A DNA stretch of 4,514 nucleotides from a virus (lineage: Duplodnaviria; Heunggongvirae; Uroviricota; Caudoviricetes): IMG/VR virus record IMGVR_UViG_2734482548_000006; one strand, written 5' to 3'. The translations under genes and the position numbers were made by a program. The notes beneath the pieces were generated by a model, which was given only the letters and a program-made list of their open reading frames with translations, did no database searches and was not told the DNA's origin. Of this stretch, positions 1 to 4,514 are shown piece by piece. Within the stretch, counting starts at the first letter, position 1; each line of letters opens with the position of its first letter.

Positions 1-47
1 AATATCTCCCCGGCAGCCTTCAGGGAAAAATATCATCAGATGGCTGC

Positions 48-401
48 TTAAAAAAAGAACAAATGGTAGTGTCCGCTATTGCCAGTACACCTCAATTGCT
101 CTGCGGCTTCGCTCAGAGCTGGCGTATGTTCCCGGCCTACTGATTCACACAGGTAATCAACGAAACCGGACACCAGTTTTCGTTCGCGAGGCGTGATCGC
201 CCCACCGACCGGAGTCCAGTAATCGAAACCCAGTTGCAGGAGTTTGAAAAAACGCTTGTGGAATGCGTAGTTACACACACGCTTAAAGTCTGCGTGTATC
301 CACTCACCTATTTTGATTTGATGCAGAAAATCGCAACTCTCCGGCGTCGCCGGGAGAAGTAATCCGGAAGAGGTTTGTTTGACCAGTTGTATATGTGCCA
401 T
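48..401 (-). CDS. Hypothetical prophage protein, about 117 aa (MAHIQLVKQ...HYHLFFF)
   Basis: Minus-strand ORF with stop TAA at 48-50. ATG at 399-401 is preceded by GGAG about 7 nt upstream; the listed ORF extends to a TTG at 443, which is a less likely start. Follows the upstream 95-aa gene by 38 bp. No family recognised. Confidence 0.55.
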   Translation of the reverse strand: MAHIQLVKQTSSGLLLPATPESCDFLHQIKIGEWIHADFKRVCNYAFHKRFFKLLQLGFDYWTPVGGAITPRERKLVSGFVDYLCESVGREHTPALSEAAEQLRCTGNSGHYHLFFF

Positions 402-439
402 CGGCTTTCTCCGGTGGCACGGTGTTACACAGCAGGAGT

Positions 440-727
440 TCAATCCTGCTCAAGATTGTAGATGAGTTTATTCTTCAGCAAAAGCAGAAAACCAGCCTTA
501 AAACCAATCTCTTTCAAAACCCGTAATGATGTGACAAATTCGTCCTCACGCAAAATAAAACCGTCCGTCAGAAGTCCATTACAAAAATAAAATAACACAG
601 CACCGCTCTTCCTTTGTTGAGATTGCAAACATCTAATGCGGCAATGGCTGACAATCGCTCCATTCTCAACGCGCACAGCATAGAGGCCATTTTCACTAAA
701 AATTTCACGCAATTCTTCGATTTTCAT
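440..727 (-). CDS. Hypothetical prophage protein, 95 aa
   Basis: Minus-strand ORF with ATG at 725-727 and GGAAGG about 9 nt upstream; stop TGA at 440-442. AT-rich coding region. No family recognised. Confidence 0.55.
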   Translation of the reverse strand: MKIEELREIFSENGLYAVRVENGAIVSHCRIRCLQSQQRKSGAVLFYFCNGLLTDGFILREDEFVTSLRVLKEIGFKAGFLLLLKNKLIYNLEQD

Positions 728-3044: not shown

Positions 3045-3727
3045 CTACTTAACAACCCTCGAATGGCTAACATTCGGACGCCAGCTCTCCCAGTTAAAAT
3101 TCACCCAGCGCCCGNNNNNNNNNNNNNNNNNNNNNNNNNNNNNNNNNNNNNNNNNNNNNNNNNNNNNNNNNNNNNNNNNNNNNNNNNNNNNNNNNNNNNN
3201 NNNNNNNNNNNNNNNNNNNNNNNNNNNNNNNNNNNNNNNNNNNNNNNNNNNNNNNNNNNNNNNNNNNNNNNNNNNNNNNNNNNNNNNNNNNNNNNNNNNN
3301 NNNNNNNNNNNNNNNNNNNNNNNNNNNNNNNNNNNNNNNNNNNNNNNNNNNNNNNNNNNNNNNNGATAGCTGCCGCTAAGTGATTCTTCCCGGTACCAGG
3401 TTTTCCGCTGAACGCAAAATTTGTACACCCGGTCATCAGTTCATCGGCGATGGATTTCGCCTGGCTTAACGCGTATCGCTGGCCGTCGTTCTGCACCTGG
3501 TAATTCGCAAACGAGCATTTACGGTGCAACGGCTGGATGCCTGAGCGATTCAGAATTTTTTCCACCCGCAACTGGCGATTCAGGCGGTTGATCTCCTCGC
3601 TACGTTTCTGGCCTTCAGCAAGTTGCCACTCGCGCCACTCCGCTACCGTTCTGAATGGGGCGGTTACATGTGGCGGGGTCAGTCGGCGGATGCGTTCCAG
3701 AACGCCGCCTGTCGCAATATTTTTCAT
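3045..3727 (-). CDS. DnaC-like replicative helicase loader (lambda P functional analog), interrupted by an assembly gap
   Basis: ATG at 3725-3727. The N-terminal 121 aa align closely with E. coli DnaC (MKNI..., SGIQPLHRKCSFANY, Walker A GKPGTGKNHLAAAI). After the N-run, the C-terminus WVNFNWESWRP...VVK with stop at 3045-3047 matches the DnaC C-terminus (WVIFNWDSYRSRV). The frame does not carry across the 250-N gap, so the gap length is nominal. Confidence 0.85.
3115..3364. other. Assembly/scaffold gap (250 N)
   Basis: Continuous run of N from 3115 to 3364, inside the DnaC-like gene. Confidence 0.99.
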
Positions 3728-3733
3728 GGTCCG

Positions 3734-4410
3734 TTACCCCCTGAAGCCTGGCGGGATCGCACTGTCCGGCAACGAGACGGTGTTAACCTGTCGGAGCAAC
3801 GTCTCAGGCCGAACACCTTTCGGCGCGAACAGGCCCTGGTATTCATTGGCGATGCTGTGTCGAATCACCTGCTCAGGTGTAAAACCCTGCTGACGGAATT
3901 TTTCCAGTTCCCGTATCGCCCCGTTAGCGCCCTGCTCCGTTCGAATCGGTTTTCGCAATGCCTGTCTGAACCGGACCCACTCATGCCAGAGTGTTTCCGG
4001 CAACCAATCGGGCAGCTCAATAGCCTCCGGCTCGAATTTTTTAGACGCTCGTTTTTGGCGAGGGGGAGATCAGTATTTAGATCTTCCTCTTCCTCTTCCT
4101 CTGGTAACGCTTTTTGATCCGTTTGTGTAACGCTGGCAGCGTTACCTTTTCGTTTCAGTTCGCGTATTTTTGTTACTCGCTCGTTTGTAACCGCCCGTTT
4201 TTTTTAGAGCTTTTTCCGTTATGACGTTCAAAGTTAGGTAGAGAAAGCCCTCCGTCATTTTCGACCAGCCATCCAACCTGAATTAACGCATCAGCAAAAC
4301 CAGACATAAAAGTGATGCGATCTATTGCACTTTTTGTAACGCCGCGAGCGTTACAATCTGCATTACCGTCTATCATTTGTTGATCCGCCCATGCCCAGAA
4401 GCGAATAACC
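3734..4410 (-). pseudogene. Phage replication initiator with DnaT-like C-terminal domain (lambda O functional analog): 5'-truncated by IS and split across three frames
   Basis: The C-terminal frame (4003-3734) ends NTVSLPDSAIPPGFRG, matching the E. coli DnaT C-terminus (NTVSEPDSQIPPGFRG, recalled), and stops 7 nt before the DnaC-like start, as in dnaT-dnaC. The N-terminal piece (frame of ORF 4173..4436) hits a stop at 4173. A third frame is open and protein-like between about 4203 and 4040 (KKRAVTNERVTKIRELKRKGNAASVTQTDQKALPEEEEEEDLNTDLPLAKNERLK). Restoring one base in the A8 run (plus T8 at 4198-4205) and one in a run at about 4037-4066 joins all three. Confidence 0.6.
4082..4102. repeat. 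Hexanucleotide tandem repeat (TCTTCC)x3.5, encoding an EEEEEE acidic linker in the replication protein
   Basis: Plus 4082-4102 is tcttcc tcttcc tcttcc tct; in the middle minus-strand frame it reads P-E-E-E-E-E-E-D. Confidence 0.5.
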
Positions 4411-4514
4411 TGAGGTAGCCTGAGTTTAACGGACACTCCTTCCTGAAATAGAATGGCATCAGAAGGAGCTAATAATGAGCAGAAAAACCCAACGTTACTC
4501 TAAAGAGTTCAAAG
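4411..4514 (+). mobile_element. Left end of an IS3-family insertion sequence (possibly IS600-like), continuing beyond the window
   Basis: Plus 4411 begins TGAGGTAGCCTGAGTTTAACGGACAC. This shares the terminal TGA and the GGACAC at positions 21-26 with the IS3 left inverted repeat as recalled. An SD (AGGAG, 4464-4468) and the ATG at 4475 lie about 65 bp inside the end, the usual position of orfA in IS3-family elements. Confidence 0.6.
4475..4514 (+). CDS. IS3-family transposase OrfA, N-terminal fragment (MSRKTQRYSKEFK...)
   Basis: ATG at 4475 with AGGAG 6 nt upstream. The translation MSRKTQRYSKEFK has the YS.EFK motif typical of IS3-family OrfA HTH proteins. Truncated by the window edge. Confidence 0.65.
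   Translation, partial: MSRKTQRYSKEFK

Follow-up and report, generated by a model that had tools for sequence, protein, structure and literature searches.

The closest described relative of the gene studied here is an intact YdaU-type initiator from Rac-like prophages of Escherichia coli, deposited as WP_038340159.1 ('hypothetical protein') and WP_001737256.1 ('phage replication initiator YdaU family protein'), with approximately 99% nucleotide identity. The E. coli gene is a single open reading frame (ORF) of 262 aa (789 bp), and it has the same neighbors as our locus: a cro-like gene, ydaT, ydaU, ydaV, DUF977, queH, and hokD. Compared to this allele, our copy is divided by IS600, its A run is A8, and 10 bp are deleted. 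The 262-aa protein also differs from the YdaU of K-12, which has 285 aa and belongs to PF07120. When the intact ortholog and both fragments were scanned against Pfam, no family was returned at E-values up to 10, so the DUF1376 (PF07120) label does not apply here; the K-12-type 285-aa YdaU found in locus L009 does carry PF07120.

Over its full length, the intact ortholog matches PHROG 2509, 'replication initiation protein' (1.2e-89, 1 to 262 of 277 profile positions), and a second match, to PHROG 6451, 'primosomal protein' (1.7e-39), covers the C-terminal half. Residues 170 to 262 align to the C-terminal domain of DnaT (PDB 2RU8, E = 9.5e-5; 9ZBT, E = 3.2e-4), where they correspond to DnaT residues ~92 to 179, and the terminal motif VNTVS-PDS-IPPGFRG is common to both proteins. 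Only this domain is related, as the phage initiator N-terminal domain is absent from DnaT. The DnaT equivalog model NCBIfam NF002770 gave 16.2 to 17.5 bits, covering the last 19 residues only, against a cutoff of 201 bits. A first-pass annotation of this DNA called the gene DnaT-like; given the C-terminal match and the missed equivalog threshold, that label is right for one domain and wrong for the rest of the protein. From N- to C-terminus, the protein consists of the phage initiator domain, a charged linker whose poly-Glu repeat varies, and the DnaT-homologous domain.

Phage lambda O and P provide a third comparison. The gene order, initiator then helicase loader, is the same, and candidate repeated sites lie inside or just upstream of the initiator gene; the only likeness to O itself that we claim is a PHROG 'O-like' match (phrog_678, 7e-26). 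From family labels and gene order, and by analogy with O and P, we infer that the intact protein would attach to the origin of the prophage and bring in the helicase loader. The expansion of IS1, IS2, IS4, IS600, and IS911 in Shigella, and the pseudogenes driven by these elements, were described by Hawkey et al. 2020 (PMC7373316); IS600 belongs to these five elements, which have expanded in every Shigella species, and is documented to give rise to pseudogenes (PMC7373316). The cases described there resemble ours in the insertion of IS600, the 3-bp duplication in a coding sequence, inheritance throughout S. sonnei, and the IS-dense region. Here the gene hit is a prophage gene rather than a metabolic gene, and nothing essential differs.

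We analyzed a stretch of 4,514 nucleotides (the window), a Rac-like prophage segment in which all genes lie on the minus strand, ordered by coordinate as hokD, queH, a hypothetical gene, a DUF977 gene, ydaV, and the gene at 3734 to 4410 (ydaU). Loci fetched for comparison are cited by L numbers. The features of the window used below are as follows.

1 to 94, plus strand: right end of a second IS600 copy, in which GTAGTGTCCGCTATTGCCAGTACACCTCA at 66 to 94 is the reverse complement of the IS600 right-end sequence of L004.
3045 to 3727, minus strand: ydaV, a DnaC/IstB-like helicase loader, annotated in E. coli as 'ydaV: ATP-binding protein'.
3734 to 4060, minus strand: 3' piece of ydaU, from the DnaT-like C-terminal domain to the stop, identical to intact-ortholog codons ~155 to 262.
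4061 to 4067, minus strand: single remaining TCCCCCT direct-repeat copy (AGGGGGA on the plus strand), the second frame-change site, located by alignment to intact alleles.
4068 to 4197, minus strand: middle piece of ydaU, a basic/acidic linker in the third frame, matching ortholog residues ~106 to 148.
4084 to 4101, minus strand: (GAGGAA)3, an in-frame hexanucleotide repeat encoding a poly-Glu stretch, with a copy number that differs between alleles.
4198 to 4205, minus strand: homopolymer A8 (T8 on the plus strand), the first frame-change site, at Lys codons 104 and 105, located by alignment.
4206 to 4410, minus strand: 5' piece of ydaU, the N-terminal initiator domain from codon 36 to ~103, with a phrog_2509 match.
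4408 to 4410, minus strand: 3-bp target-site duplication (GGT on the gene strand, ACC on the plus strand), found on both sides of IS600 in L004 and L006.
4411 to 4514, plus strand: left end of IS600 (IS3 family), with the inverted repeat TGAGGTAGCC...; the window is identical to L004 here.

Six-frame translation spreads the ydaU product across three minus-strand frames. As the first-pass annotation stated, the initiator cannot be read as one ORF, and its three-frame reading holds when compared to the intact ortholog, because every piece aligns to the 262-aa protein. A hybrid 87-aa ORF at the 5' end matches phrog_2509, 'replication initiation protein' (9.3e-37); the middle piece reads KRAVTNERV...EEEEEEDLNTD; and the 3' piece, which matches phrog_6451, 'primosomal protein' (1.7e-29), is in the frame of the native stop codon (TAA at 3734 to 3736), with the ydaV ATG 6 nt downstream. 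Alignments to intact E. coli and S. dysenteriae alleles, at ~99% nucleotide identity, reveal exactly three structural lesions. The 5' piece is identical to the orthologs except for one synonymous change (GGT>GGA), and the rest of the gene as a whole is likewise unchanged from the intact alleles except for one synonymous change. When we repaired the lesions in silico by removing the IS and one GGT, restoring the 10 bp, and setting the A run to A6, the protein was identical at 262 of 262 residues to WP_038340159.1 of E. coli FDAARGOS_944; the same repair with A9 gave one extra lysine. With three mapped disruptions relative to near-identical intact orthologs, the undoing of which restores the full ORF, the gene is a pseudogene. 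We are highly confident in the fuller reading, namely that this is a YdaU-type initiator pseudogene of Shigella sonnei, lying within the remnant of a Rac-like cryptic prophage, produced by IS600, A-run slippage, and a 10-bp deletion, and inherited clonally.

Homology to the intact orthologs stops at 4410/4411, with the last ydaU base at 4410 and IS sequence (TGAGGTAGCCTGAG...) from 4411. Megablast of positions 3364 to 4514 against complete E. coli genomes returned hundreds of near-identical copies, with similarity ending at 4411. The 5' end of the gene therefore runs into an IS3-family terminal repeat at the place first reported (about 4411). The element is IS600: the 1264-bp copy in L004 shares 99.8% identity, over its full length, with elements that carry the annotation 'IS3-like element IS600 family transposase'; it has TGAGG-type terminal inverted repeats (TGAGGTAGCC... 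and TGAGGTGTAC...); and a two-ORF transposase is called in the loci (orfA, 100 aa, PF01527, HTH_Tnp_1; orfB, 272 aa, PF00665, rve). The orfA start ATG is at 4475, and the window holds only the first 40 nt of orfA. The GTG at 4434 to 4436 (minus strand) that starts the hybrid 87-aa ORF lies inside IS600, as had been noted, and the first nine codons of the ORF (MSVKLRLPQ) are IS-derived.

The gene had been described as IS-truncated, a term that needs correction. In L004 and L006, which are complete S. sonnei assemblies, nt 1 to 107 of ydaU lie on the far side of the 1264-bp element. The L004 junctions read ...GGGAAGGT, then IS600, then GGTTATTCGC..., compared to GGGAAGGTTATTCGC in the intact allele. 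Because the first 107 nt and the GGT duplication are found beyond IS600, the gene is interrupted rather than truncated; the event is a simple transposition into codon 35/36, and truncation of ydaU by the IS is ruled out.

The far side of the codon-36 IS600 is not the ydaU 5' fragment in some assemblies (L005, L009, L012, and L013). There, positions 6640 to 6762 of L005 are part of another transposase gene, and positions 6700 to 6765 of L009, L012, and L013 hold a K-12-type ydaU or ydaV gene, with Ns where the sequences meet. These far sides reflect either IS-mediated rearrangement or scaffold mis-joins. Separately, in a rare S. sonnei-labelled allele (L019 1431 to 1868 and the contig ends of L017 and L018), the run is A9 and codon 36 is free of any IS. 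The allele carries an independent IS600-like end after ~nt 408 (AAAAAGCG followed by TGAGGTAGCC...), a second IS600 insertion in ydaU.

Two internal lesions remain, both of which the first-pass annotation took to be single-base deletions in homopolymers. The only homopolymers of at least 6 bases in the ydaU region are T6 at 4037 to 4042 and T8 at 4198 to 4205. Alignment to the intact alleles confirms the T8 tract as the first frame-change site: the window and all 10 fetched S. sonnei loci have A8, the E. coli orthologs have A6, and S. dysenteriae (L014 to L016) and the S. sonnei-labelled L017 to L019 have A9, making A8 a change of -1 from A9 or +2 from A6. The second frame change had been placed at a homopolymer near 4037 to 4066, but it is a 10-bp repeat deletion. 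Both the T6 run and a T5 run are the same as in the intact orthologs, and a lesion within T6 is ruled out. The intact layout is GATC-TCCCCCT-AAA-TCCCCCT-CGCC, containing the direct repeat TCCCCCTAAATCCCCCT; the deletion, TCCCCCTAAA, removes one 7-bp TCCCCCT unit and the AAA spacer, changing GATCTCCCCCTAAATCCCCCTCGCC in the intact alleles to GATCTCCCCCTCGCC in the window. It is present in all 10 fetched S. sonnei loci. The earlier frame arithmetic worked because both lesions shift the frame as -1 would (A9 to A8 in one case, -10 in the other); as a description of the second lesion, however, a single-base deletion in a homopolymer is wrong.

The in-frame hexamer near the deletion is itself variable. 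There are two GAGGAA units in the S. dysenteriae alleles and in the E. coli locus L003, three in the window, in L004, and in the E. coli loci L001 and L002, and six or seven in L006 to L008 and L010 (at ~8336), such that S. sonnei assemblies have three, six, or seven. The repeat, (GAGGAA)n, is a small VNTR inside the pseudogene.

The simplest and most likely path for the A run is a one-base loss, A9 to A8, which we favor because the nearest relatives by flanking sequence carry A9: of ~1300 positions upstream, only 2 distinguish L018 and L019 from L004, and both loci have the 1-bp deletion in ydaT that is seen in S. sonnei. The direction of the change is judged on very few informative sites. 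Here the expectation of A9 in the first-pass annotation was partly borne out, in that A9 is a plausible ancestral length, given its presence in S. dysenteriae and the nearest S. sonnei-labelled relatives, but this genome truly has A8. It is also possible, though unlikely, that the same pseudogene gained two bases from an E. coli-like A6 allele. Among the three E. coli alleles with A6, L001 and L002 have three GAGGAA units like the window, where the S. dysenteriae A9 alleles have two, and repair to A6 yields 262/262 identity to an existing protein; however, a hexamer that ranges from two to seven units is a poor marker, a two-base gain is less simple than a one-step slip, and the A6 origin leaves aside the A9 of L018 and L019, the loci closest in their flanks.

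If the frame changes were instead draft-assembly under-calling of homopolymers, the real genome would have an intact gene body. In favor of this, the window is scaffolded across a gap of 250 Ns, and one lesion does lie within an 8-base homopolymer. Miscalls or slippage do happen at this tract, as an A7 version of the hybrid ORF (97 aa; SRW53799.1) occurs on 3 S. sonnei contigs, the longest of 4.81 Mb; A7 is either rare extra slippage, and so a slight polymorphism, or a homopolymer miscall. The 87-aa ORF offers a way to count the A8 version, because it depends on the IS600 junction for its start and on A8 for its tail (KKNGRLQTSE). An exact match to the ORF occurs on 492 contigs (481 blocks) of the protein collection, named Shigella sonnei (for example, 'hypothetical protein FORC11_0721 [Shigella sonnei]'), which reach 4.86 Mb and thus chromosome size; another 73 contigs have a 67-aa call that ends in this tail. 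In most blocks with the 87-aa ORF, the contigs are 2 to 5 kb long, which fits the window as a segment between two IS600 copies.

All 10 fetched loci, from different assemblies, have the same IS junction, A8, and 10-bp deletion, and the non-N bases of the window on both sides of the gap are 100% identical to L004, L005, and L012, leaving no private differences. The lesions are thus neither private to one assembly nor missing from independent ones. Exact look-ups of the products that A9 or A6 would give at this IS junction, with or without the deletion, found none on record. Moreover, the second lesion is a 10-bp deletion rather than a homopolymer indel, and IS600 would still break the gene after repair of both frameshifts. 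The case against an artefact is the agreement of many assemblies, from different projects and contig-size classes, rather than raw reads. Because these assemblies are clonal descendants, they show that the sequence is real, and not that the events recurred.

A 211-bp query against complete E. coli genomes gave no full-length match above 94.6% identity, from which we conclude that no complete E. coli genome carries both lesions. Two short lesion-centred megablast probes returned no matches among 5,426 complete E. coli genomes, a search on which we place no weight, as the T8 and G5 tracts were possibly masked by the low-complexity filter and it lacked a positive control. Judged by the agreement among deposited sequences, we take the split reading frame to be real sequence and reject assembly error; an intact gene body hidden by under-called homopolymers is extremely improbable. 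Between the two explanations offered by the first-pass annotation, genuine decay is thereby supported, and homopolymer under-calling is rejected. That annotation's guess of an IS-rich, Shigella-like genome was also right.

A real split gene might nevertheless function, through ribosomal frameshifting at A8 or through use of the separate pieces (the hybrid IS600-ydaU N-domain ORF, the free-standing DnaT-like C-domain ORF, and the intact ydaV), perhaps driven by a promoter that reads outward from the IS600 end. In favor of function, the A8 run is slippery, most S. sonnei loci keep both ydaV and the 89-aa C-terminal ORF open, and the remnant has only one extra substitution, which is synonymous. 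Few mutations, however, are equally expected after recent inactivation in a young clone. Two frame changes and the IS would all need to be bypassed, and the C-terminal ORF has a TTG start only, without a demonstrated ribosome-binding site. In E. coli and S. dysenteriae, each ortholog is one uninterrupted ORF containing A6 or A9, so frameshifting is not conserved, and we rejected a programmed ribosomal frameshift. We consider residual function of the split gene very unlikely. There is a similarly slight chance that ydaV, the C-terminal ORF, or the hybrid ORF is expressed, perhaps from the end of the IS, and has been kept in S. sonnei for an effect on host replication restart or on incoming Rac-like phages. 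If the remnant were expressed and kept, the A run (A6 to A9) and the GAGGAA repeat (two to seven units) would be hypervariable modulating tracts.

For the pseudogene, which is the reading we prefer, the following history, given in no order of time, would account for the three lesions. IS600 would have transposed into codon 35/36, duplicating GGT (its usual 3-bp duplication) and separating the promoter, the ribosome-binding site, and the first 107 nt from the rest of ydaU. Strand slippage in the poly-A run would have left A8, most likely from A9 (-1), and slipped mispairing of the two 7-bp direct repeats may have caused the loss of 10 bp. The lesions have been passed down clonally across S. sonnei.

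The surroundings of ydaU show decay as well. Both IS600 ends in the window (1 to 94 and 4411 to 4514) are in the same orientation, which makes the window a 4.3-kb segment bracketed by direct IS600 repeats; in the L004 gene map, IS600 is at 12450 to 13606. The C-terminus of a DUF1367 gene (window ORF 48 to 443, minus strand) has been removed by IS600, leaving 117 to 131 aa compared to 199 aa in L009. Next to ydaU, ydaT has a 1-bp deletion (GTTAGCC to GTTGCC) relative to the S. dysenteriae and E. coli alleles, at ~6195 in L004 and also in L006 to L008, L010, L018, and L019, which leaves a 101-aa call instead of 140 aa; this lesion is more decay within the same replication module. The sole break in the window copy of ydaV is the 250-N scaffold gap at 3115 to 3364, where L004, L005, and L012 have 314 bp of sequence; S. 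sonnei loci including these three have an intact ydaV of 248 aa (PF01695/PF00308). In the surrounding 16 kb of L004, we found several IS elements and, of the holin and integrase genes, only a fragment each. The locus is a heavily decayed prophage remnant.

A 19-bp palindrome, GTAACGC-N5-GCGTTAC, occurs at 4127 to 4145 and at 4336 to 4354 of the window, and a third copy is at 4172 to 4190 of L001, 14 to 32 nt upstream of the ydaU ATG, such that the three copies are spaced ~190 to 210 bp apart. Zero copies are expected by chance in the window, and the palindrome is conserved in all alleles examined. On the basis of these sequence features, we propose the palindromes as candidate initiator-binding or origin sites. 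In S. sonnei, IS600 parts one of them from the other two.

The main import of these results concerns annotation hygiene. Because the frame breaks are real, other coding sequences in the contig need not be distrusted for homopolymer error, and the locus is no argument for or against the quality of the draft assembly beyond the scaffold gap. In S. sonnei genomes, the two deposited ORFs that carry the labels 'hypothetical' or 'bacteriophage protein' are pieces of a single dead gene. The loss of ydaU is ordinary IS-driven genome decay, of a known and already-understood kind.
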